From a virus (taxonomy: Duplodnaviria > Caudoviricetes), in IMG/VR virus record IMGVR_UViG_3300021387_000147: 64,000 nt of DNA; one strand, given 5' to 3'. Below, in pieces: positions 34,056 to 61,958 of this stretch (its first letter is position 1; the number at the start of each line of letters is the position of its first letter). A program made the translations under genes and the position numbers. A model generated the notes under the pieces. That model had not been told where the DNA came from. It worked only from the letters and a program-made list of their open reading frames with translations, and ran no database searches.

Positions 34056-34325
34056 ATGTTATTGACTGAAGCACTTGAACTTTTAGAAAAGAATGGATAC
34101 GAAATATCTGATAATGCAACTGAAAAACAAAGAGAACGTTTAGCAAAAGATATTAGAGAGCAAATTGTTCCTGCAATGATGGAAATAATTTTTAAGCGTT
34201 CTTTTGGAGAAGAAGAATTCAAACATAAGATTATGGAATGTTATTTGCCAGTTGCAAAAATAATGGCAGATAAAAATTTGACAAAAGAACAGAAAGCTGA
34301 AGCAATCTTAGATAATTGGATGTAA
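34056..34325 (+). CDS. Late protein with MxLxE..GY leader
   Basis: TATAAATA 34017-34024; MLLTEALELLEKNGY. Confidence 0.6.
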   Translation: MLLTEALELLEKNGYEISDNATEKQRERLAKDIREQIVPAMMEIIFKRSFGEEEFKHKIMECYLPVAKIMADKNLTKEQKAEAILDNWM

Positions 34326-49149: not shown

Positions 49150-49656
49150 TTATTTATATAGCTCTTTTATTTGGTCTTTAGTCAAAATTCTTTGATTACT
49201 TGAACCTCTAAATTTAAGAGTTAAATCTTTCTTTGCTTCTATAAATGGACCATCTACTAAGACATCTACATTTTCTATAATTGCATTTGTAACTCCTTGA
49301 ATATATTTTCTTTGACCATATTTTAAATCTTTATCTAGAATATATCCAGTATACATCCAAAGAGTTTTATCAGGACAATTTAGTTTGAATTTCTTAATAA
49401 AAGAAAGTAAAGCTAATTGATTTTCTTGTTCAAATGGGTCTCCACCTAAAATAGTCAATCCTGAAATATAAGACTTTTTACATTGTTCTATTATTTCAAA
49501 TTCTTCTATTGGAGTAAAAGGTTTACCATATTCAAAATCCCATGTTTGTTCTGAAAAGCAACCTTTACAATGATTTCTACATCCACTAACAAATAAACTA
49601 ACTCTGACACCATCACCATCAGCTGTGTCAATCATCTTTATATTACCAAAGTTCAT
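49150..49656 (-). CDS. nrdG: Anaerobic ribonucleotide reductase activase
   Basis: DGDGVRVSLFVSGCRNHCKGCF, LGGDP, DVLVDGPF, FRGSSNQR. Confidence 0.95.
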   Translation of the reverse strand: MNFGNIKMIDTADGDGVRVSLFVSGCRNHCKGCFSEQTWDFEYGKPFTPIEEFEIIEQCKKSYISGLTILGGDPFEQENQLALLSFIKKFKLNCPDKTLWMYTGYILDKDLKYGQRKYIQGVTNAIIENVDVLVDGPFIEAKKDLTLKFRGSSNQRILTKDQIKELYK

Positions 49657-50563: not shown

Positions 50564-50983
50564 TTAAAAGTAATTATCAATATCTAGAAGGATATTATGC
50601 ACTGTTGTTCCTAATGTATCTGCTTGTGTTTCAGTTTCTCCATCAATGAATTTTGCATAAGGACGATAATATTGAATATAATGATCATCTTCTGGATCAT
50701 ATAATGCAAATTTATCATTACCTTCGTATTTTAAAATTAATGTATTTATATGATTTTCATATTTTGGATTTTTCTGATGAACTGTAATTACAATTTCTTT
50801 TCCTTGTAATTCAGCTTCACACCATGTATGTTGAGGTCCAACTGCCTTTTTAAATGAAGCTGATTTATTAAATGCCTTCAACATACGTTGCATATAACGT
50901 GTTGTATTAAATTTGTCAGTATCTTCTTTTAATAAAGAATAACCTGCATCTCTCATTACTTTCTTAGCTTCTAGTAAATTCAT
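50564..50983 (-). CDS. Late protein with MNLLEAKKVMRDAGY leader; start corrected to 50983
   Basis: Leader identical to that of 61566-61958. Confidence 0.6.
   Translation of the reverse strand: MNLLEAKKVMRDAGYSLLKEDTDKFNTTRYMQRMLKAFNKSASFKKAVGPQHTWCEAELQGKEIVITVHQKNPKYENHINTLILKYEGNDKFALYDPEDDHYIQYYRPYAKFIDGETETQADTLGTTVHNILLDIDNYF
50943..50983 (-). repeat. 41-bp duplicated leader-coding sequence (copy at 61918-61958)
   Basis: cctgcatctctcattactttctt(a/t)gcttcta(g/a)taaattcat, 2 mismatches. Confidence 0.8.
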
Positions 50984-51763: not shown

Positions 51764-52561
51764 TTAGTCACCACTCCAGTTTCCATTTGGATGGTCTTTA
51801 TAATATCTTCTTTGGTCTTCAGCAACAGAATCAAAGTAATCACTACCACGTTTCATTTCTTTTCTAACATATTCTTCATTATCATTCAACCACTGTTCTA
51901 TTTTATTTAAATTATCAGCAGTTAAATCATACTGACCTCTTGTCCAGGTATTACGAGTTGCTGTTAAACCATCAATATCTGATAAATTTATGAAAGCACA
52001 CAAACCAGACCATTTATAGAATGTACCATTTATCCAGTCAACATTTAATGTAATTGCTCTTTCAAATCTAGGGAATACAATTTCGTGGTCGCTAACTTTG
52101 CCATTTCTTTCTTCTAATTTAGCATTGGTTTCATTTTTAACAAGGTCTTTGTTGTATTTTTCAACTTCATCGCTTTTACTACGATAAATGTCTCGTACAC
52201 TTTCACCAGTATCAGCATCTATATTTGCTTTTTTCAAAAAGTAATTAATCATACCTTTGCAATTATTTAATTCATGTGTTATATTCCAAAAATCAGACAT
52301 ATAATTAGCAAGTTCAGAAACATCCATATCTACATATTTTTGCCACTTTGGATAATAAGATTTGAAAGTAGCAATAGCATTTCTTAAATGTTTCCAGTTA
52401 GTATCTTTTGTACCTTTTGGAAAATCATTAGCAGTAAAATTTTTACCATTTATAGTAAGAACTGCACTATTATGAGGTCCTTTATAATTTAAATCTATAT
52501 CAATTTTTTCACATATATAGCCATGTTCTTTTAATTCCAATATTGCTTCATTTAAATTCAT
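51764..52561 (-). CDS. Late protein with MNLNEAILELKEHGY leader
   Basis: TATAAATA 52577-52584, SD GGAG. Confidence 0.65.
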   Translation of the reverse strand: MNLNEAILELKEHGYICEKIDIDLNYKGPHNSAVLTINGKNFTANDFPKGTKDTNWKHLRNAIATFKSYYPKWQKYVDMDVSELANYMSDFWNITHELNNCKGMINYFLKKANIDADTGESVRDIYRSKSDEVEKYNKDLVKNETNAKLEERNGKVSDHEIVFPRFERAITLNVDWINGTFYKWSGLCAFINLSDIDGLTATRNTWTRGQYDLTADNLNKIEQWLNDNEEYVRKEMKRGSDYFDSVAEDQRRYYKDHPNGNWSGD

Positions 52562-52637: not shown

Positions 52638-55600
52638 TTATTTATCATTTGGTCTCTTATATCCAAATATCTTCATAGTATCATCTTTCTTAACTGTTCT
52701 ATCACCCTTCTTTTGTTCCTTATAGTCACATCTATGTTTTGCTATAGATTTAGACCAAAGTTTAGTGATATATGCACCTGTTCCTAATGCATGACCATTC
52801 TTTGCTTTTACATTTCCATCTTTATCTGATAGCCAATCTATTACCATCTGGACGGTTCCAGCAGAAGTAGTCTTAGCTTCATCATTCAATGTAAATTCAA
52901 TATTGAAGTCATTTACATAGTTTGCATTGTTTGTATATACCCACAAATGTAAGTTATAAGTGACATCATATAAAGGAATATTCAATCCATTCTTCTTATA
53001 ATCTTCCTTGAATTCATCAGTACAATGTTCTGCTACATAAGTTTCTACTGGAATTCCCTTAGTTGAAGCACCTACAATATTTCCTTTATCATCTACAGGA
53101 ATCATTCCATTCTTAACAATATCATCAAGAGTTGCTAATGAACCTGTTGGAGATACTGATGGCAATACAATATCAACCTTAAAGCCTACACCAATTACTT
53201 CTGGAAGACTATCATTCTTTGGATCTACAAATTTAACATCATAAGGTTTCTTATCATTATATTTGTGACCTTCTGAATAATACTCATCTACCTTATCTTT
53301 GTCTACTTTTGTGACAGGATGGACTAGAGTAATATCAATATCTTTTGCTTCTTTCATTATAACAGTTATTGTATCTTCAGCAACGTTTCCAGCCTTATCT
53401 ACATAACGTCTAATGATATGATTTACTCCCTTTTCCAATCTCTGTAGTGTCAAAGTGTCTTGAACTTCTCCATTTACAGTCCACTTAACTGGAATAGCAT
53501 TTGTATTAAATGATTCCATTGGAGTTGGATTTAAGATTTCAACCTTAGGTGGAATGTTATCAAAGATTATTTCTACCTTTGCGCTTGCTTTATTGCCATA
53601 ATCATCTGTATATTCATAAGCAATTGTATAAGCAATATTTCCTTCTTTATTCTTAACAATCTTCTTATTATCATCTACAGAATATGTGACCTTTGTGCAA
53701 GAGTCAATCATATAAGATACTTCATAATCACCAATCTTCTGACCAGTTAGATTATCAGTCTTATAAGATACTACTACATCTTTTCCATTTACTTTCTTTG
53801 TATATGTGACTGTCTGAACAGTGTCAACTGGTTTTCCAGTCTTTGTATCAATTACTTGTTTTAATTCAACTTCAACACCATCTACTTTAATTATTTCAAC
53901 TAATTCAGCCAAGTTATTTCCAATTGGAACTACTTTTGCCTTAGTTTCATCAATTATGTAGTTGTATTCAGTTAACTTAATATCCTTTGTAGAAACTGTA
54001 TCTAGAGTGACATCTATATTGAAATGCTTTTCTGTCTTATGAATTGTATCTTTTACAGTGACAGTAATTTCATTATTTTTCTTATTAACATAGATTTTAT
54101 CATCTTTTTCTTCTTCAATAGTAATATAGTCAATCAATGCATCAGTTGACTTAGCATTAGTCAAAGTGACAACTGGAGGTGCATCATTGAATAGAATTAC
54201 TACAGAATCACATACAGTCTTCTTTTCATTACATACCTTAATTATAGTATCTTTCTTAACAACTACATCCAAAGTATCATAATCACATTTAATACCTTCA
54301 CATAATTTCCATTCAATATTATGGTTAGGATCATTTGTCTTAATTGTATCTTTCTTTGGTTCATTGTCAATTGCAGTAATCTTTACATCTTCTTTTTCAT
54401 CGATTATATTGATTACGATAGTTGCAGTATCAGTATTTCCATTACCATCAGTGACAATAACTTTTACAGTATCTTTTGTTTTCTTTTCATAATCAATAGG
54501 ATTCTTGATTACTAATGTATCATCCTTAAATTCATAATTAGGGTTATCAATTACAATATAAGTTATGCTATCCTTATCCTCATCTGTTGCTGGGATTTGA
54601 CATACATTACCTACATAGTTTTCTTTAATTGTACAAGTCTTATCATCAACATGGACTGGTTCATTTACATTAGTAATTGTAATTACATATTTTAATGTAT
54701 CTTTATTATCAGCTTTATCTTTAACAACTACTGTAATTGTGACAGTTGGAGTTGTTTCATGATCAAATGGTTTTGTTGTTGTCAACTTACCAGTACTATC
54801 AATCTTAAATCCAGGTTCTTTTACACTATAGGATAATGTATCATTTTTATCTGGATCAATTGCTGTAATAATACCTATAAAACAAGTATCACAATTTTCT
54901 GGAACTTTTAATGTATCATTTGGTTGTAATACTGGAGGTTCATTAACATCTTTAATGTTTATAATTACTTTAGCGCTATCTTTATCTCCATTCTTTGTAT
55001 TAACATAGACAGTAATTGTATCTGCTTCCTTAGTTTCAAAATCAAATGGATTTACCAAGGTAAGTTTACCAGTGCTATCGATGTTATAATTAATAGAATC
55101 AGAGAGAGTAAATTTAATAGTGTCTCTAGGTCCATCTTCATCCCATGCTGTTATTGTTCCTAATACTCCTGTTGTATCTTCATTGATTGAGAATATTGTA
55201 TCTCTAACATGAACTGGTTCGTTTTCGTCGTTAATCTTTACAGACACATTCATAGTATCTTTTAATGTTCCATCAGAAACAACTACCTTGAATGTAAATT
55301 CTGTTTCCTTTTCATAGTCAAATGTTCTTGTAGATGTAATAACTCCATTGTTATCAATTTTAAATGGAACATTACCAACAATTGTATATGTTAACTTATC
55401 ACCATCTTGGTCAGTTGCTTTTACACTGTCCTTAAATGGCTTATTTTCATCAACATAGAATGTAGTATCATTCTTATCAAACTTAGGACTATCATTTGAA
55501 TTTGTAATGTTAACTGTGACGATAGCACTATCCTTCAAAGTTGGGTCATTCTTATCTTGAACTAATACTTTTAATGTATAAGTCTTCTGGTCTGCTTCAT

Positions 55601-57425
55601 AATCAAATGTTTTCTTAGCCCATAGTTCACCATCTGCATCTAATCTGAAGATGCTGGTGTCGCCTTCTAGAAGACTGAAGACGTTCTGAGTGAATTCAGA
55701 CTTAATATCAACATCAATAGCTATCAAAGTATCAATGCTCTTTGTTATAACATTATTTTCTTTTAGATCAATAGATACATCATTTATTGTAGGAGCTTCA
55801 TTAACGTCAATTACAGAAATTGGTAGATTTCTAGTAATAGAAACATTACCAGTATCTTTCAATGTGACCTTAATTACATCAGTGATTGCTTTTTCATAAT
55901 TCAAAGTATCACCAAACAAAGTCAATACACCAGTCAAACTATCTAATGTATATCTGTCAGTATATGCTGAATCCAAATAGAATCTTGTTGTTTCTGTCTT
56001 ATGTAGAACTTTAATTGAATCTACAAATCCTCTCTTATTTTCTTCAAACTTATAAGTATGAGTTGTATCGAATTCTACATTATTTTTTACATCAGCATCA
56101 ATAATTTTAATTGGTAATTCACCACTTGTTTCACCACCAGGCAAGACAGCACCACTAATACTATCAATCTTCATTACAAGAATATCATTTGTTTCTGTCA
56201 AATCATCTACTTTAACATTTATTTTAATAGTATCTAATGGAGACTTCTGACCAATAGGAATCTTTGTTGTGACTGTTGAATCACCACAAATTGGTAAATA
56301 AGGAGGCATATTGAAGTCTTCTAATGTGACTCCATCTTTAAATTCAAAGCAATATGTGAAGTATACATCAATAGTTGCTGTGTCTGATAGTTTAATTGGA
56401 ATAATAACAGTAGAGTCATTTTCCTTTAGACCACCTTGTTTATTCAATTCAGGGAAATCAAGTGTATCTGGGTCAAACTTAACGAAACGGAAATTTTCGC
56501 CTTTGAAATCGTCACCAATTTCAAGTTTGTTAGCAAGCATCTGTCCAGCAAAATCAAGATTACATTTCAAATACATTTTAGCTGTAGTAATGAATGAACC
56601 CTGAATAGGAACATTGTCAGTATTGTCAAATATAATGTCTTTGTTAGAATAAATTAAAACATTACCACGGTATTTACTTTGTGGCAAAACAGAATCACCA
56701 AGTATTACACTAATAGTAGTATGGTTACCGATAAACAAAGAATCAACGAAAATTCTTGTTAGTCGGTTCTGGGTCATGTGAATATAAATCTTACAACCAG
56801 TCTTACCATCTACGCAAGTCCAAATGTTCTTGAAATACAAGTCATATTGACCTTCTCCTTCGGGAACTTCAATAGTATCAGCTTGGTAATTATCGGTTAA
56901 AATAATGTCTTGTTGATAACCATCGGAAGGCCAAGTAATAGTAGGCATAGATAAATTAACTGGTGCTGGTGGAACACTATCACAAGACAATTTACCTTCA
57001 CCACGGGAAATACCTGTAGTTGTTGGAGCAACTGGAGTTTCTGTCAAACATATATTACCAGCAAAAATAGCCTGTTCGTTATCATTACCAGTAGTTAATG
57101 ACTTAGCACGAATAGGGCCAGTTGTGAATTGACATTGGTCACCAAGTGTAATAGTGCTATCTGTCAATACAGGACCACCTAAACTAATTCCTTCAGCAGA
57201 AGAAATTGGTCCTGACGAACCATTCCAACCTGACTTATCAGGAATGATTACACGGCGACCCATTTTAATATAGTCTGTACCATATAGCTTATACTGAAGC
57301 ATATAGTCATATTGGTCCTGTTGTAATGCAGAATCATTTGGTATATTTGAGAAATTGAATGGTCTATAATCTGCTGTGAAAGCAAATGCAACCAATAATA
57401 ATATAATTCCAATTATCTTTTTCAT
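52638..57425 (-). CDS. Secreted cadherin-repeat adhesin-like protein, Fibrobacter-type
   Basis: Signal peptide MKKIIGIILLLVAFAFTA; about 6 cadherin repeats (FDYE, DVNEAP/NEPV, A.D.D); Calx-beta-like segment; C-term GAYI...FGYKRP. Confidence 0.8.
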   Translation of the reverse strand: MKKIIGIILLLVAFAFTADYRPFNFSNIPNDSALQQDQYDYMLQYKLYGTDYIKMGRRVIIPDKSGWNGSSGPISSAEGISLGGPVLTDSTITLGDQCQFTTGPIRAKSLTTGNDNEQAIFAGNICLTETPVAPTTTGISRGEGKLSCDSVPPAPVNLSMPTITWPSDGYQQDIILTDNYQADTIEVPEGEGQYDLYFKNIWTCVDGKTGCKIYIHMTQNRLTRIFVDSLFIGNHTTISVILGDSVLPQSKYRGNVLIYSNKDIIFDNTDNVPIQGSFITTAKMYLKCNLDFAGQMLANKLEIGDDFKGENFRFVKFDPDTLDFPELNKQGGLKENDSTVIIPIKLSDTATIDVYFTYCFEFKDGVTLEDFNMPPYLPICGDSTVTTKIPIGQKSPLDTIKINVKVDDLTETNDILVMKIDSISGAVLPGGETSGELPIKIIDADVKNNVEFDTTHTYKFEENKRGFVDSIKVLHKTETTRFYLDSAYTDRYTLDSLTGVLTLFGDTLNYEKAITDVIKVTLKDTGNVSITRNLPISVIDVNEAPTINDVSIDLKENNVITKSIDTLIAIDVDIKSEFTQNVFSLLEGDTSIFRLDADGELWAKKTFDYEADQKTYTLKVLVQDKNDPTLKDSAIVTVNITNSNDSPKFDKNDTTFYVDENKPFKDSVKATDQDGDKLTYTIVGNVPFKIDNNGVITSTRTFDYEKETEFTFKVVVSDGTLKDTMNVSVKINDENEPVHVRDTIFSINEDTTGVLGTITAWDEDGPRDTIKFTLSDSINYNIDSTGKLTLVNPFDFETKEADTITVYVNTKNGDKDSAKVIINIKDVNEPPVLQPNDTLKVPENCDTCFIGIITAIDPDKNDTLSYSVKEPGFKIDSTGKLTTTKPFDHETTPTVTITVVVKDKADNKDTLKYVITITNVNEPVHVDDKTCTIKENYVGNVCQIPATDEDKDSITYIVIDNPNYEFKDDTLVIKNPIDYEKKTKDTVKVIVTDGNGNTDTATIVINIIDEKEDVKITAIDNEPKKDTIKTNDPNHNIEWKLCEGIKCDYDTLDVVVKKDTIIKVCNEKKTVCDSVVILFNDAPPVVTLTNAKSTDALIDYITIEEEKDDKIYVNKKNNEITVTVKDTIHKTEKHFNIDVTLDTVSTKDIKLTEYNYIIDETKAKVVPIGNNLAELVEIIKVDGVEVELKQVIDTKTGKPVDTVQTVTYTKKVNGKDVVVSYKTDNLTGQKIGDYEVSYMIDSCTKVTYSVDDNKKIVKNKEGNIAYTIAYEYTDDYGNKASAKVEIIFDNIPPKVEILNPTPMESFNTNAIPVKWTVNGEVQDTLTLQRLEKGVNHIIRRYVDKAGNVAEDTITVIMKEAKDIDITLVHPVTKVDKDKVDEYYSEGHKYNDKKPYDVKFVDPKNDSLPEVIGVGFKVDIVLPSVSPTGSLATLDDIVKNGMIPVDDKGNIVGASTKGIPVETYVAEHCTDEFKEDYKKNGLNIPLYDVTYNLHLWVYTNNANYVNDFNIEFTLNDEAKTTSAGTVQMVIDWLSDKDGNVKAKNGHALGTGAYITKLWSKSIAKHRCDYKEQKKGDRTVKKDDTMKIFGYKRPNDK

Positions 57426-57440
57426 TTTTAATTACCTTCC

Positions 57441-57641
57441 TTATACAATTCCTTTCTTCTTGCAGAAGTTTATCAATGCTCTAACAATAAAAATGCCGAT
57501 AAAGTCTACTATTATGAAGAATGTGTTGAACTCCACGAAGAATAACGGCAATCCTAGTAATGCACCTATAGCTGTAAGTATCGCACAAACCAACAATAAG
57601 TACATAAAAACATTTAGTGTTTTAAGTATTAATTCTTCCAT
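57441..57641 (-). CDS. Small 2-TM membrane protein
   Basis: Hydrophobic; downstream of a TTTACA-N17-TATATT promoter (57670-57698). Confidence 0.55.
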   Translation of the reverse strand: MEELILKTLNVFMYLLLVCAILTAIGALLGLPLFFVEFNTFFIIVDFIGIFIVRALINFCKKKGIV

Positions 57642-57745
57642 TTTATCTTCCTATATATTTATTCATCAAAATATACCTATTTATTACATGCTTGTAAATA
57701 CCTGCATTAAAAAAAGAGCCAAATTACTTTGACTCTTTATTATCA

Positions 57746-58252
57746 TTATCCACATGAATCGGGAAGAGGTCCGCCACAGCCTGGAGAACCGCATCCAGTA
57801 TACCTATAATAAGTTCGCCCACATCCACCTCCAATTTCAATCCAACCTGGATTTAGTGAACTACCACATCCACCATATCCTCCACATGCAACAATATTTG
57901 GCATATACATGTATGGACTTGCCCACATATTACCACAGCCACCACAACCATGAGGCCATCCACTATTTCCACAACCGCCACATGCTACTATTGTATAAGA
58001 ATTTGTTGCAGAAATTCCACCGCCACTATGGCTACGTTTTCTCTTTTGTTCATAAGGCCATAGAGGTGGAACAGGAGGTTCCTTAGGTTTCTTTATTTTC
58101 TGATAAACATATCGTAATGCATCTGGAAGAGCCTTTCCTGTATTTGGACCAGATTGAGAATAACCTTGTCCACATCCTCCACCGCAAGCAGTTATACGTA
58201 AAGGTCTAAATCCTTTCGCATAAAAATGATTTTGCATTTCAATTAACTTCAT
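57746..58252 (-). CDS. Cys/Gly-rich (A/G/S)CG-repeat protein, candidate radical SAM substrate
   Basis: All 12 Cys occur as xCG; 4-bp overlap with the radical SAM stop. Confidence 0.65.
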   Translation of the reverse strand: MKLIEMQNHFYAKGFRPLRITACGGGCGQGYSQSGPNTGKALPDALRYVYQKIKKPKEPPVPPLWPYEQKRKRSHSGGGISATNSYTIVACGGCGNSGWPHGCGGCGNMWASPYMYMPNIVACGGYGGCGSSLNPGWIEIGGGCGRTYYRYTGCGSPGCGGPLPDSCG

Positions 58253-59178
58253 AATATACCGTCTTCACCATTTTTCTTTAATAGCCAATCAATATAGACA
58301 GGATCTTTTTCATATTCTGTCACATCGTCATCCAATGTAAAATTACCAAAGACCCATCTTTCAAAATCAGTATTTGTCACAAAATCCCAATCATCATAGA
58401 TTTGTCCATCAATTGTTATTAAAATATCATTCACAAATATCTTATTACCATAGATTACCTTAGAATGTTCCATTCCTCTATGATAACTAATCAACATCTT
58501 ATCATCCCAAAATCTGTCATCATTACAGACCATGCATCCACCAGACATTTCATATTCATATTCGTTAATCAACTTTTCAAATACGTCATCTCTGTTCTTC
58601 AAATTATTTTTGTTAATCTGTCTATAATCTGCTCTGATACAAATAGAAACATTCTCTAAACCTCTATAAGGTTCTATAAAAGTCTTAAATTCATTTATAT
58701 CAAATGTTTGTGATAAAACGACATTCAATTTAATATGTTTCTTAATTAGATGAGCAAACATATCAATTGGTAGAACATCTTCATAGAACTGCTGATGCAT
58801 GTGTCTAGATACATTCAAACCTCCAATCTTTTCATTTTTGTTAATGAATTCAATCATTGGCTTGACTTTATCTAATTGCACAGTACCAGGATGGTCAGTA
58901 AATGTTGGGAATGTAGTATTGATATAAACAGGCTTTTCCATAGCATCAATTAGTCTTTGACACTTTTCTAGGTCGGCTAATGGTTCTCCACCTGTCAATA
59001 CATATTCTTGAATTAAAGGATTTTCGTTAATCTTTTTAATTTGTGCAATAATTGCATCCATATCACATGTTCTCTGCTTATACATTTGTTTGGATGTGCA
59101 GAATTTACAGTGATTATTGCAATCCCATGGCACAAAGATAGTGCAACTTAAATTACTTCTTCCTTTAATATATCTCAT
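58249..59178 (-). CDS. Radical SAM enzyme; start corrected to 59178
   Basis: CNNHCKFC, LTGGEPL, INT, NVSRH; extra CMVC; SD AAGGA. Confidence 0.85.
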   Translation of the reverse strand: MRYIKGRSNLSCTIFVPWDCNNHCKFCTSKQMYKQRTCDMDAIIAQIKKINENPLIQEYVLTGGEPLADLEKCQRLIDAMEKPVYINTTFPTFTDHPGTVQLDKVKPMIEFINKNEKIGGLNVSRHMHQQFYEDVLPIDMFAHLIKKHIKLNVVLSQTFDINEFKTFIEPYRGLENVSICIRADYRQINKNNLKNRDDVFEKLINEYEYEMSGGCMVCNDDRFWDDKMLISYHRGMEHSKVIYGNKIFVNDILITIDGQIYDDWDFVTNTDFERWVFGNFTLDDDVTEYEKDPVYIDWLLKKNGEDGIL

Positions 59179-59188
59179 ATAATTCCTT

Positions 59189-59238
59189 TGTTTATCTAAA
59201 ATATACAAAAAAAGGACAGGAGCGTCAACCCCTGTCCT
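59189..59238 (-). promoter_or_regulatory. nrdD terminator with TTGACG -35 in its loop, plus TATATT -10 driving the radical SAM cassette
   Basis: AGGACAGGGG-TTGACG-CTCCTGTCCT T-tract G TATATT, 17-nt spacer. Confidence 0.75.
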
Positions 59239-59257
59239 AATCTATTATCCAATTATT

Positions 59258-61408
59258 TTATAAATGTTTGACTCTATCATGAATATCGCCCATTCTACCT
59301 TGTGCCATATAATTTGCATTTCCAAGATAACCACAAACTCTACGAACAACATTCATTTTAGCCAAATCTGTATTTCCACATTGTTTACACTTCCAAATAA
59401 ACTTACCATCTTCATTTCTAATCATTTCAATGGTACCTGTAGAACCACAACAATGACACCAATCCAATTCTGTATTAATTTCACAATACATAATGTTATC
59501 ATAAATGTATTTGATTACAGACAAGATAGCTTCAACGTTGTTTTCCATATTTGGAGTTTCAATATAAGAAATAGCTCCACCTGGTGACAATTTCTGTAAT
59601 TCTGCTTCAATATCAATCTTCTTAAATGCATCAATCTTTTCAAAGACAGGAACGTGATATGAATTAGTGATATAGTTTCTATCAGTAATTCCTGGAATTG
59701 TACCAAATCTACGTTGCAATGCCTTAGCAAACTTTTCAGTAGTATTTTCAATTGGAGTTCCATATACAGAATAGTCAATCTTTTCTACTTGCTTCCAATC
59801 ACGGCATTTATCATTTAATGCTTGCATGATCTTCTTACCTAGAACCATTCCATCTTCATCTGTTAAAGACTTACCAATCAAGACTTTAACAGTTTCATAT
59901 AGACCAGAATATCCTAGTGAAATAGTTGAATATCCATTATATAGTAGCTTATCAATTGTTTCACCTTTACCTAATCTTGCGAAAGCACCGTTCTGCCATA
60001 GAATTGGAGCTACATCTGATTTAACACCTCTTAAATGTTCATGACGTAATCTTAATGCTCTATGACATAATTCCAATCTCTGTTCTAGAATATACCAGAA
60101 TTTTTCTAGGTCACCCTTTGCAGATAAAGCAACATCTGGCAAATTGATAGTGACAACACCCTGATTGAAACGACCATAGTACTTAGGTTTCTTTGTCTTT
60201 GGATCTCTATATGGAGTCAAGAATGAACGGCAACCCATACATGGATAGCAATCACCTGGTTCACCTTTCTTACTAATCTTCAATTGTTTCATGACTTTTT
60301 CTGAAATATAGTCAGGAACCATTCGCTTAGTAGTACATTCTGCAGCCAATTTAGTCAAATACCAATATTTACTATCTGGTGTGATATTATCTTCTTCCAA
60401 AACATATAATAGTTTAGGGAATGGATTTGCATAATACTGGCCATTTTCATTCTTAACACCTTTCATTCTTTGTTTTAAGATTTCTTCAATGACTAATGCT
60501 AAGTTTTCCTTTTCTTGTTCATTTTCTGCTTCATTCAAATACAAACAAACAGAAACGAATGGAGTCTGACCATTTGTAGTCTGTAATGTTAGAATTTGAT
60601 ATTGTAGAGTTTGTACACCATCTCTAATATCTTTTCTTACTAAATCTTCAATTTGTGCATCATTTAATGTTGGGAATTCTGATTTAAAGTAATCTCTTGC
60701 AACATTAATGAACTTAGACAAATGAGATGCAGTAATAGTTTGTCCACCATATTGAGAAGATGCAACTTGAGCAACAATCTGAGAAGCAATATTACAAGCA
60801 TTTCTAAATGTATGTGGCTTATCAATCTGTGTTCCTGAGATAATAGTACCATTTTGTAGCATATCATCCAAGTTAATTAAACAACAGTTGTGGATAGGCA
60901 TTGCAAAGTAGTCCATATCATGGAAGTGTATAATACCTTCTTTATGAGCATGGAATATATCACTTGGAATTAAATATCTTTGTGAAATATCCTTACTTAC
61001 TTCACCTGCCATATAGTCACGCATTGTAGAAACTATATTAGGATTCTTGTTAGCATTTTCTTGTTGAATATCTTCGTTATTACCGCTGAGTAATGACATT
61101 ATTCTATCATCAATCGTATTTTTACGTTCTGATAGAGCTTTTTGGTATGTGTATACCATGTATTCATCTGACACATCATATTTTCCAGCTTTATTTATGG
61201 CATCTTTTACCATATTTTGAATATCTTTATATCCAATTGAAACTGGAGAAGCTTTACATTTTTGTTCTATATCTTTAGCAATATCTTTTATTTCTTGTAT
61301 TGTTAATCTATCTTCGATTCTTACCTTTTCATTTGCTTTTGAAATAGATTCAATAATGTTATTCTTATTAAATGTGACTTCAGAACCATTACGCTTTCTA
61401 ATTATCAT
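59258..61408 (-). CDS. nrdD: Anaerobic (class III) ribonucleoside-triphosphate reductase with ATP cone
   Basis: IRKRNG ATP cone, HFHD, NCC, MGCRS, GTPIE, CHCC/CKQC, RRVCGYLG glycyl-radical motif. Confidence 0.96.
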   Translation of the reverse strand: MIIRKRNGSEVTFNKNNIIESISKANEKVRIEDRLTIQEIKDIAKDIEQKCKASPVSIGYKDIQNMVKDAINKAGKYDVSDEYMVYTYQKALSERKNTIDDRIMSLLSGNNEDIQQENANKNPNIVSTMRDYMAGEVSKDISQRYLIPSDIFHAHKEGIIHFHDMDYFAMPIHNCCLINLDDMLQNGTIISGTQIDKPHTFRNACNIASQIVAQVASSQYGGQTITASHLSKFINVARDYFKSEFPTLNDAQIEDLVRKDIRDGVQTLQYQILTLQTTNGQTPFVSVCLYLNEAENEQEKENLALVIEEILKQRMKGVKNENGQYYANPFPKLLYVLEEDNITPDSKYWYLTKLAAECTTKRMVPDYISEKVMKQLKISKKGEPGDCYPCMGCRSFLTPYRDPKTKKPKYYGRFNQGVVTINLPDVALSAKGDLEKFWYILEQRLELCHRALRLRHEHLRGVKSDVAPILWQNGAFARLGKGETIDKLLYNGYSTISLGYSGLYETVKVLIGKSLTDEDGMVLGKKIMQALNDKCRDWKQVEKIDYSVYGTPIENTTEKFAKALQRRFGTIPGITDRNYITNSYHVPVFEKIDAFKKIDIEAELQKLSPGGAISYIETPNMENNVEAILSVIKYIYDNIMYCEINTELDWCHCCGSTGTIEMIRNEDGKFIWKCKQCGNTDLAKMNVVRRVCGYLGNANYMAQGRMGDIHDRVKHL

Positions 61409-61565: not shown

Positions 61566-61958
61566 TTAGAAACGTTGTTTCTTGAAATGATCAATCATTA
61601 ACTTAGTGAAGTCATCCTGATTTGGACGTTTACGTGTCTTTACATATTCTTCTGCTGCCTTAATTAGAGTCTGACGAACATCTTCAGCACTCATGCAACG
61701 CTTACATGCCTGTAGACAGTCATAAACCAAATCTTCCTTAACAACAGCACGAATGAACTTTGTGACCTTTCTAAAGTCTGTTGCAAATCCATCGTCATCC
61801 CAAGAAGCTTCTGTACCATCGTCTTCTACTTCTTCTGGATATTTTGCTGCGCCTGATGCAACCAATTTGTCTTCGATTTCTGGAGTATAAGTCCATTCTT
61901 CTTTCATCAACTTATATCCTGCATCTCTCATTACTTTCTTTGCTTCTAATAAATTCAT
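61566..61958 (-). CDS. Late protein with MNLLEAKKVMRDAGY leader
   Basis: TATAAATA 61999-62006; SD GGAG. Confidence 0.65.
   Translation of the reverse strand: MNLLEAKKVMRDAGYKLMKEEWTYTPEIEDKLVASGAAKYPEEVEDDGTEASWDDDGFATDFRKVTKFIRAVVKEDLVYDCLQACKRCMSAEDVRQTLIKAAEEYVKTRKRPNQDDFTKLMIDHFKKQRF

Follow-up and report, generated by a model that had tools for sequence, protein, structure and literature searches.

A phage-encoded radical SAM enzyme associated with a Cys-Gly repeat protein: a putative protein-modification system of gut phages

Background

Radical SAM enzymes that modify peptides are a main source of new natural-product chemistry, and almost all known ones carry SPASM/twitch clusters and act on separate leader-bearing peptides. 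The sactipeptide and ranthipeptide maturases and other SPASM/twitch peptide enzymes (SkfB 6efn, CteB 5wgg, SuiB 5v1q, ChlB 9gm3, EpeE/YydG 8ai1) have a Cys-rich partner encoded next door, and multi-repeat substrates are known in this group. In the SbtA/SbtM system (NCBIfam TIGR04081/TIGR04082), SbtM, a SPASM enzyme with about three clusters, converts the Cys or Sec of a conserved GG(U/C)G motif into a thio(seleno)oxazole by H abstraction at Cys C-beta, giving -4 Da and a band at 304 nm (PMC9204691). The CXXX-repeat system (TIGR04114/TIGR04115) combines a radical SAM enzyme with a protein carrying Cys at every fourth residue. MoaA, the GTP 3',8-cyclase (PDB 1tv7/2fb2; NCBIfam TIGR02666), carries a three-Cys auxiliary cluster motif CxxCx13C and an essential C-terminal GG. 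Finally, the PeSL (promoter-early stem-loop) cassettes of T4-type phages consist of a terminator hairpin joined to an early promoter and are associated with module shuffling (PMC2839356).

Here, a pair of genes of a giant sheep-gut phage (IMG/VR record IMGVR_UViG_3300021387_000147) was analysed within a stretch of 64,000 nucleotides, further called the window. The earlier note on this DNA had described a radical SAM gene overlapping a gene for a Cys-Gly repeat protein, with a promoter and a terminator of their own, and this observation was confirmed, with qualifications concerning the promoter. Its interpretation, that the phage makes a multi-core polypeptide modified by sactipeptide/ranthipeptide-like chemistry and possibly associated with the virion, could be supported only in part.

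Gene pair and flanking elements

The features of the locus are given in Table 1. The open reading frame of the enzyme runs from a TTG (58249..59208), but its homologues start at MRYIKG, and the real start is therefore the internal ATG, which is preceded by an AAGGA box. The TGA stop of this gene overlaps the ATG of the repeat ORF as ATGA. All 12 Cys of the repeat protein are followed by Gly and preceded by A, G or S, while in 200,000 composition-preserving shuffles the maximum was 9 CG, so that none reached 12. Close relatives keep the reading frame through indels of repeat modules. No family was found for this protein in Pfam, NCBIfam or PHROGs, and it has no signal-peptide-like N-terminus.

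Table 1. Positions of the features in the 64,000-nucleotide window
Coordinates	Strand	Feature	Length	Characteristics
58249..59178	-	Radical SAM enzyme	309 aa	CxxxCxxC at residues 20-27; GGEP at 63-66; invariant C215-x-x-C218 and H233-R-G on C-terminal beta-hairpins
57746..58252	-	Cys-Gly array protein	168 aa	12 of 12 Cys in (A/G/S)-C-G; ends in SCG; N-terminal helix-GF motif; Pro/Lys-rich insert at about residues 30-85 that shorter relatives lack
59200..59228	-	Sigma-70-like promoter candidate		TTGACG-N17-TATATT; 10 of 12 matches
59213..59238	-	Terminator hairpin of nrdD		Loop holds the -35 of the promoter candidate
57706..57738	-	Intrinsic-terminator-like hairpin and T-run closing the pair		Hairpin at 57738..57713
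49150..49656	-	Canonical NrdG		TIGR02491, 170.3 bits against a cut-off of 126.1; 58% identical to the NrdG of relative G003
59258..61408	-	NrdD, anaerobic ribonucleotide reductase (upstream neighbour)		PF13597 at E 2.4e-176; NF006732 at 835 bits

Both the terminator-like and the promoter-like elements were found, although promoter-like hits in the region are no more frequent than in shuffled sequence (12 against 12.4). In strains of 95-99% identity, 1.8 kb or 168 bp of other DNA is located between the -10 (59200) and the ATG of the enzyme (59180), and the promoter is therefore not private to the pair, contrary to what the earlier note had supposed. The pair itself stays together in every close relative. 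The promoter candidate looks early-type, and no TATAAATA late box was seen on reading the sequence. Contigs from four sheep-gut metatranscriptome libraries cover the pair, which shows presence in RNA libraries but is no proof of transcription, since contigs cannot show strand, ends or level.

Predicted fold and remote homology of the enzyme

The residues C20/C24/C27, G63-G64-E65-P66 and the later C215/C218 are invariant in 33 homologues, and only two invariant Cys lie outside the SAM cluster. In Pfam, only Radical_SAM (PF04055, 32.3 bits against a cut-off of 29.5) and Fer4_12 were found. No SPASM (PF13186) hit was obtained, nor a PqqD/RRE hit, although RRE detection by Pfam is insensitive; the model is a single domain from residue 1. 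In NCBIfam, the scores remained far below the curated cut-offs, with 31.1 bits against 131.15 for TIGR02495 (NrdG2, the best hit, E 1.3e-7), 23.2 against 126.1 for TIGR02491 and 21.1 against 284.05 for TIGR02666 (MoaA), and no curated family was matched. PADLOC gave only weak pVip hits to the cluster-binding region.

The AF2 model of the enzyme (pLDDT 89.8) shows a partial TIM-barrel fold, and every top PDB match is a radical SAM enzyme. The best structural matches are MoaA and peptide-modifying SPASM/twitch enzymes (GDGT-MAS Z 14.5, MoaA 14.3, SuiB 13.8, ChlB 13.3, SkfB 12.8), which stand above PflA and QueE at 10.8; CteB (11.7) and viperin, which acts on CTP, are also among the matches. MoaA was the top hit in Foldseek and in the search of PDB profiles, and profile-profile alignment by hhalign gave 97.8% (E 1.3e-12 over 216 columns). 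In this alignment C215 and C218 correspond to the first two Cys of the auxiliary motif of MoaA, the third Cys aligns with Ser/Ile, and H233 aligns with the His that follows it. The GTP-binding Arg pair after CxxC is not conserved, and the enzyme ends in GEDGIL.

Structure prediction of the enzyme and its partner with SAM and two 4Fe-4S clusters gave a median ipSAE of 0.22 (mark 0.32), which counts neither for nor against binding. For a fused member of the family (P0199, alignment of 59 rows) the core was modelled at pLDDT about 96, but the tail (277-349), predicted to be disordered, stayed below 50 and no docking of the C-terminal Gly-Cys could be read.

Conservation of the association between enzyme and array

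The family comprises about 200 clusters at 50% identity and occurs mostly in phages of anaerobic guts. As the earlier note had asked, homologues of the enzyme were examined for adjacent Cys-Gly-rich ORFs, with a positive outcome: they usually have such a neighbour or carry the array as their own C-terminal tail. In 29 loci with enzyme relatives at 37% identity or more, 21 ORFs with at least 4 CG and at least 60% of Cys in CG lie within 800 bp of the enzyme gene (44.5 kb), and none in the other 228.7 kb. Further independent lineages down to 35% identity show the array upstream or downstream. Of 139 representatives (50%-identity clusters), 65 have two or more CG in a C-terminal tail of the enzyme itself, and 79 end in C or CG. 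On the tree, the split clade of the window is sister to a fused form inside a clade with 99% support, and the fused label needs at least 16 changes.

The association is not universal. The complete 348-kb phage genome G005 encodes the enzyme (40% identity) but no Cys-Gly array ORF anywhere, the loci L014, L028 and L029 of enzyme relatives also lack one, and a bacterial sister group at about 30% identity lacks arrays. The nearest genome and virus record examined (G001, G002) do not contain the enzyme, and GenBank phage records gave only two weak tblastn hits for the enzyme and none for the array ORF. Full-text literature searches for a phage radical SAM enzyme with Cys-Gly repeats found nothing relevant, apart from the SbtM precedent.

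In 18 arrays from different lineages, 100 of 123 Cys are followed by Gly and 10 more are C-terminal. Among these 100 units, in which position +1 is Gly by construction of the count, position -1 is Gly in 56% and position -2 is Gly or Ser in 53%. Tyr is enriched three residues before Cys (27%), but only C and G are fixed. The Cys-Cys spacings are irregular, with modes of 5-6 and 9-11 residues. A universal leader before the arrays was also looked for. The helix-G-(Y/F) motif is seen in several split forms, and in the window an N-terminal motif M-x-L-x-E...G-(Y/F) is shared with four other ORFs, but the linkers of fused forms are diverse and the N-terminal motif is absent from many arrays in other lineages; it was therefore dropped as a general recognition element.

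Interpretation

Based on these results, we consider the pair to be one member of a large, uncharacterised and mostly phage-borne radical SAM family, whose core is a remote MoaA relative with a cut-down auxiliary-cluster hairpin and which works together with a disordered polypeptide of (G/S/A)-Cys-Gly units, being either the C-terminal tail of the enzyme (the commonest form) or a separate protein encoded next door (the form in the window). In the proposed mechanism the array is the substrate: a Cys thiolate of a G-C-G unit would bind at or near the incomplete auxiliary site (C215, C218, H233), and the 5'-deoxyadenosyl radical would abstract a hydrogen from that Cys (C-beta) or from the following Gly (C-alpha), so that each unit is covalently changed. 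By analogy with SbtM, the most likely product would be a thiooxazole ring that keeps a free sulfur and could bind metal, a thioether link being the next option. We give this reading a probability of about 0.55. The gene pair, the conserved linkage and fusion, the predicted fold with its remote homology, and the fact that the enzyme is not NrdG are established by the analysis, while modification of the array, the atom concerned, metal binding and the use of the product to the phage are inferred, the modification from gene association alone. The cases without an array count against this reading, as does the presence of only two conserved Cys beyond the SAM cluster, since known Cys-oxidising or thioether-forming radical SAM enzymes use full SPASM/twitch clusters. 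An enzyme fused to its own substrate would moreover be single-turnover unless molecules act on each other.

Among the alternatives, a role of the array as a built-in helper is unlikely but carries the most weight. The tail could supply the missing ligand(s) of the auxiliary cluster, gate the active site as the C-terminal Gly-Gly tail of MoaA does, or give up sulfur, hydrogen atoms or electrons, the real substrate being a nucleotide or another small molecule or macromolecule. The nearest homologue acts on GTP, the third auxiliary Cys is missing, some relatives do without any array, and the gene sits beside nrdD here and beside nrdG in G003. The frequent ending of tails in Cys or Cys-Gly also recalls the C-terminal GG, found in the four MoaA sequences examined, and the C-terminal carboxylate of QueE that binds its substrate (PMC9204691). 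However, a ligand or gate needs one Cys and not 5-12 units of variable number and spacing, Gly is kept after 100 of 113 non-terminal Cys, which fits recognition of a dipeptide better than a redox relay, the Arg pair of MoaA is not conserved, most family members lie among small phage early-type ORFs rather than nucleotide genes, and arrays also sit at the N-terminus of unrelated 200-aa proteins. Glycyl-radical formation on the Gly of Cys-Gly (a mini-GRE), peptide cleavage or amidation at Gly, and a sacrificial sulfur donor were also considered and are counted among these alternatives. The reading of the earlier note appears more doubtful still, also in a variant with a secreted instead of a virion-associated product. 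An adjacent, translationally coupled Cys-rich partner, structural matches to the thioether-forming SkfB and CteB, the Tyr enrichment (a possible acceptor) and the shared N-terminal motif, which is real but of conjectural meaning, speak for it. Against it stand the lack of a SPASM domain or full twitch cluster, the absence of a conserved acceptor residue, the absence of a protease or exporter nearby, the prevalence of enzyme-array fusion and the sigma-70-like rather than T4-late-like promoter. Thioether cross-links, a classical RiPP and a place in the virion are thus not supported.

It is very unlikely that the Cys-Gly protein is simply a metallothionein-like metal binder or a disulfide-cross-linked low-complexity protein next to an enzyme with another task. 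C-G-G-C (CxxC) spacings occur, the Gly/Tyr/Cys-rich composition resembles that of matrix-forming proteins and the tail is predicted to be disordered, but Cys makes up only 7% of residues (12 of 168), and linkage and repeated fusion to one enzyme family are not expected for an unrelated neighbour. An unusual NrdG-type activase for the adjacent NrdD, with the array ORF as unrelated neighbour, is close to refuted. The position directly downstream of nrdD, the NrdG2 hit and the JGI name 'organic radical activating enzyme' of some relatives pointed to it, but the scores are far below the cut-offs, a canonical NrdG is encoded in the window and in relatives G003 and G006, which also carry this enzyme, most relatives are not near nrdD, and PflA is a weaker structural match than MoaA or the SPASM enzymes.

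A further-reaching possibility, which we regard as unlikely although it is not excluded, is a new class of self-contained module, in which a MoaA-derived enzyme lacking a full auxiliary cluster would rewrite Cys-Gly units of its own disordered tail or of a split-off partner into sulfur heterocycles or cross-links, chemistry so far known only from SPASM (SbtM) or oxygen-dependent iron enzymes. Gut phages would express it early in infection to make a metal-binding or redox-active polypeptide. The family offers enzymologists a compact two-gene, or even one-gene, system in which to test for new Cys/Gly chemistry, and phage biologists an unexplained, widespread gene with an early-type promoter here and, in the relatives looked up, a place among small unannotated ORFs. 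If the product is a thiooxazole-type metal binder, it would extend such chemistry to viruses.

Comparison with described systems

The hairpin directly joined to a sigma-70-like promoter resembles the PeSL cassettes of T4-type phages, and near-identical strains differ by insertions exactly at this element, as described for PeSL-mediated module shuffling (PMC2839356). This resemblance was judged on arrangement rather than on the RB49/phi1 PeSL consensus, and it concerns the mobility of the cassette, not its function. The CXXX-repeat system shares the combination of a radical SAM enzyme and a Cys-repeat protein, but the fixed unit here is Cys-Gly with irregular spacing, and its models gave no hit. 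With the sactipeptide/ranthipeptide maturases and other SPASM/twitch enzymes, the fold-level similarity covers the core and the C-terminal hairpin region (Z 11.7-13.8) and a Cys-rich precursor-like partner is likewise encoded next door, while the SPASM domain with its 7-Cys motif and a fixed acceptor residue are lacking and the array is most commonly fused to the enzyme.

The SbtA/SbtM system has the same target motif, GG(U/C)G corresponding to the (G/S)-G-C-G consensus of the arrays, and likewise combines a radical SAM enzyme with a Gly/Cys-rich partner. However, TIGR04082 was not among the best 25 of the 27 NCBIfam families hit by the enzyme at E up to 0.1 and did not match its relatives in five phage genomes. 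The 168-aa ORF gave no hit in Pfam or NCBIfam; a genome search with TIGR04081 returned nothing, controls included, and is by itself uninformative. The enzyme has five invariant Cys in all, and the partners are phage-encoded and often fused to it. MoaA remains the closest detectable homologue, sharing the radical SAM core, a C-terminal beta-hairpin bearing CxxC-N and, as a theme, a functionally important extreme C-terminus. The phage enzyme keeps two of the three auxiliary-cluster Cys, lacks the rest of the MoaA C-terminal domain and the GG end, and is coupled to Cys-Gly arrays, which MoaA is not.

Gene organization

The positions of the features discussed here are listed in the table. On the minus strand of the window, nrdD ends in a hairpin terminator and is followed by a radical SAM ORF. 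All homologues of this ORF begin with MRYIKG, and the start was therefore placed at the ATG at 59178, which is preceded by AAGGA, and not at the TTG at 59208. The resulting protein has 309 residues, and its stop codon overlaps, as ATGA, the start of a 168-aa ORF, after which a second hairpin and T-run close the pair. In the 168-aa ORF all 12 Cys are followed by Gly and preceded by Ala, Gly or Ser, while none of 200,000 shuffles of the same residues gave more than 9 such dipeptides. Close relatives of this ORF (77-90% identity) keep the reading frame through gains and losses of whole repeat modules and keep the Cys-Gly positions. It is therefore a real gene, and the description of this two-gene unit in the earlier note was correct.

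Coordinates of the features in the window and in related loci
Feature	Position	Strand	Remarks
nrdD	59258-61408	-	PF13597, E 2.4e-176
Terminator hairpin of nrdD	59238-59213	-
Radical SAM ORF, start codon	59178	-	309 aa
Cys-Gly array ORF	57746-58252	-	168 aa; starts with the shared N-terminal motif
Hairpin and T-run closing the pair	57738-57713	-
Promoter-like site of the 66-aa ORF	57698-57670
Hydrophobic ORF	57441-57641	-	66 aa; just downstream of the terminator of the pair
Cadherin/Ig domain protein	52638-57425	-	1595 aa; directly downstream of the region
nrdG	49150-49656	-	TIGR02491, 170 bits, cut-off 126
ORF with shared N-terminal motif	34056-34325	+
ORF with shared N-terminal motif	50564-50983	-
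ORF with shared N-terminal motif	51764-52561	-
ORF with shared N-terminal motif	61566-61958	-
Convergent array proteins (relative G003)	L007:5168-5779 and L010:5178-5795	-	200-225 aa
Convergent array protein	L015:4804-5466	-	200-225 aa
Convergent array protein	L030:4804-5535	-	200-225 aa
Inserted ORF in a near-identical strain	L140:1076-2839	+	587 aa
Inserted remnant in a near-identical strain	L141:2831-2998		168 bp
Gene with Tad2-like hit	L004:4520-4918	+	just upstream of the enzyme homologue
Further radical-SAM-like ORF of G003	G003:C1:182039-182293 (L230)		334 aa

The radical SAM enzyme is not the activase of NrdD. Its best curated hit is NrdG2, with 31 bits against a cut-off of 131, while a canonical NrdG is encoded 9 kb away from nrdD in the window. 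In the complete 415-kb relative G003 the gene order is nrdD, two genes, nrdG, one gene, this enzyme and a Cys-Gly ORF, so that only two genes separate nrdD and nrdG, and the nucleotide-metabolism block has been rearranged. In another relative, G006, the enzyme lies 220 kb from nrdD-nrdG, and other relatives are located among small unannotated ORFs with no nrdD in sight.

Conservation of the link between enzyme and Cys-Gly arrays

Loci around relatives of the enzyme were collected from viral, genome and metagenome collections. In the 29 loci whose enzyme is at least 37% identical, 21 ORFs with at least four Cys-Gly and at least 60% of Cys in Cys-Gly lie within 800 bp of the enzyme gene, and none lie in the remaining 229 kb. 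More lineages, down to 35% identity, show the same, with the array ORF located downstream, upstream or convergent. The arrays appear as short peptides of 50-90 aa, as the C-terminal half of 100-170-aa proteins, and as the N-terminal part of unrelated 200-225-aa proteins. The latter, found in L007 and L010 (relative G003), L015 and L030, are convergent to the enzyme gene and carry 6-8 Cys-Gly units at the N-terminus, followed by an unrelated C-terminal domain with no Pfam family. An exhaustive profile search gave 207 cluster representatives at E up to 1e-30. Of 139 listed representatives with the HRG motif of the family, 65 carry two or more Cys-Gly units in a C-terminal extension of the enzyme itself, and 79 end in Cys or Cys-Gly. 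On a tree of the enzyme cores, fused and unfused forms interleave, and well-supported branches force at least 16 changes, with the split clade of the window being sister to a fused form within a clade of 99% support. Repeated fusion and fission of two parts is strong evidence that they work together.

Some relatives do not follow this pattern. The complete phage genome G005 (348,671 bp, L121-L139) encodes a 40%-identical enzyme with all family motifs, but no Cys-Gly array ORF was found anywhere in it, and a few other loci also lack one. A bacterial sister group at about 30% identity (L042, L083 and about 70 other genome loci from Megasphaera, Oscillospiraceae and Acidaminococcus), with CxxxC and YHKT in place of CxxC and YHRG, has no Cys-Gly partner. 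In Megasphaera elsdenii its gene lies between an IclR-like regulator and addB-like genes, as judged from the ORFs. In L004, a locus from a 269-kb contig, the gene preceding the enzyme homologue hits Pfam Tad2-like (Thoeris anti-defence), a hint from one locus only that the module sits in counter-defence regions.

Over 18 arrays from different lineages, 100 of 123 Cys are followed by Gly and 10 more are the last residue. Position -1 is Gly in 56% (otherwise Ser, Arg, Thr or Ala), position -2 is Gly or Ser in 53%, and Tyr is frequent at -3 (27%). The spacing from Cys to Cys is irregular, with modes at 5-6 and 9-11, and only the dipeptide is fixed. The tail of a fused member was left disordered by AF2.

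Predicted structure and homology of the enzyme

The invariant residues of the enzyme are the SAM-cluster Cys (20, 24, 27), GGEP, N-x-S-R-H (122-126), R-x-D-Y (182-185), C215-x-x-C218, H233-R-G and D-W (263-264). The AF2 model is confident (pLDDT 89.8, pTM 0.89). Structural alignment with VIA-align ranked GDGT-MAS (Z 14.5), MoaA (14.3), SuiB (13.8), ChlB (13.3), SkfB (12.8), viperin, PqqE, anSME and EpeE above PflA and QueE (10.8), and the matches run through the C-terminal hairpins. Foldseek, a PDB profile search and the ESM Atlas all placed MoaA first outside the family. A profile-profile comparison with four genomic MoaA sequences gave 97.8% probability (E 1.3e-12) and aligned C215 and C218 with the first two Cys of the auxiliary-cluster motif CxxCx13C of MoaA, while the third Cys has no counterpart and H233 matches the His that follows it in MoaA. 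The Arg pair after CxxC, which binds GTP in MoaA (PDB 2fb2 is the Arg17/266/268 mutant), is not conserved. The enzyme is thus a MoaA-derived radical SAM with an incomplete auxiliary site, no SPASM domain and no curated family.

Setting in the phage genome

The genome has been described as that of a giant T4-like phage of the sheep gut, and the stretch was present in DNA and RNA libraries from sheep gut. The promoter candidate is sigma-70-like, with its -35 in the loop of the nrdD terminator, which resembles the promoter-early stem-loop cassettes that mediate module shuffling in T4-type phages (PMC2839356). Strains 95-99% identical to the window over the matching segments fit that picture. One of them has a 1.8-kb gene for a protein with a hydrophobic N-terminus (L140), and another has a remnant with a short signal-like ORF (L141), both inserts lying exactly between the -10 (59200) and the ATG of the enzyme (59180). 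Contigs from three metatranscriptome libraries show the same break at 59180. The enzyme-array pair moves as one block, but the promoter is not its own. Downstream of the pair, the 66-aa ORF is very hydrophobic and gave no family hit, while the 1595-aa protein has a signal-peptide-like start and several cadherin and bacterial Ig domains, and may be a phage surface or adhesion protein.

No late-type TATAAATA box precedes the pair, so a late or virion role finds no support here. The N-terminus of the array protein does share the motif M-x-(L)-x-E-x(5-9)-G-(Y/F) with four other ORFs of the window. Two of the five read MNLLEAKKVMRDAGY, and the downstream sequences of the five are unrelated. The motif has been listed for many more ORFs of this genome and read there as a capsid-targeting signal, while its helix-then-G-Y pattern may also resemble the start of HicA-type proteins. 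In G003 a 205-aa protein with the same motif carries a Cys-Gly array right after it.

Possible function and comparison with known systems

The observation made in the earlier note is confirmed. Its interpretation as a radical SAM plus Cys-repeat modification system is partly supported, holding in its core but needing correction in its details, since the enzyme is not of the sacti/ranthi type, is probably not a classical RiPP maturase, and is not shown to be linked to the virion. No description of this family was found in the literature searches.

By analogy with the thio(seleno)oxazole-forming enzyme SbtM discussed below, it is proposed that a Cys thiolate of a G-C-G unit completes or approaches the two-Cys-one-His site and that the unit is oxidised at Cys. 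A thioether to Gly C-alpha or to a nearby Tyr is the next option. While the gene pair, its conserved linkage and fusion, the kinship to MoaA and the distinction from NrdG come from the sequence and model comparisons, this reaction is inferred. The main rival explanation is that the tail is a helper (cluster ligand, gate, or donor of sulfur or electrons) for a reaction on something else. The kinship to MoaA, the strict C-terminal Cys and the array-free relatives favour that rival, while the many units, their variable number and the invariant Gly argue against it.

A published precedent fits the motif of the arrays. SbtM, a radical SAM/SPASM enzyme, converts the Cys or selenocysteine of a conserved GG(U/C)G motif into a thio(seleno)oxazole, taking hydrogen from the Cys beta-carbon, with a mass loss of 4 Da and the appearance of a 304 nm band, and the authors favour binding of the Cys to an auxiliary cluster (PMC9204691). 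The relatives of the enzyme and the partner ORF of the window do not match the SbtM or SbtA models, so they are not members of that system, and in G003 the SbtM model gave a weak hit (12 bits) to a further radical-SAM-like ORF. The same core motif nevertheless makes the same kind of reaction the best single guess.
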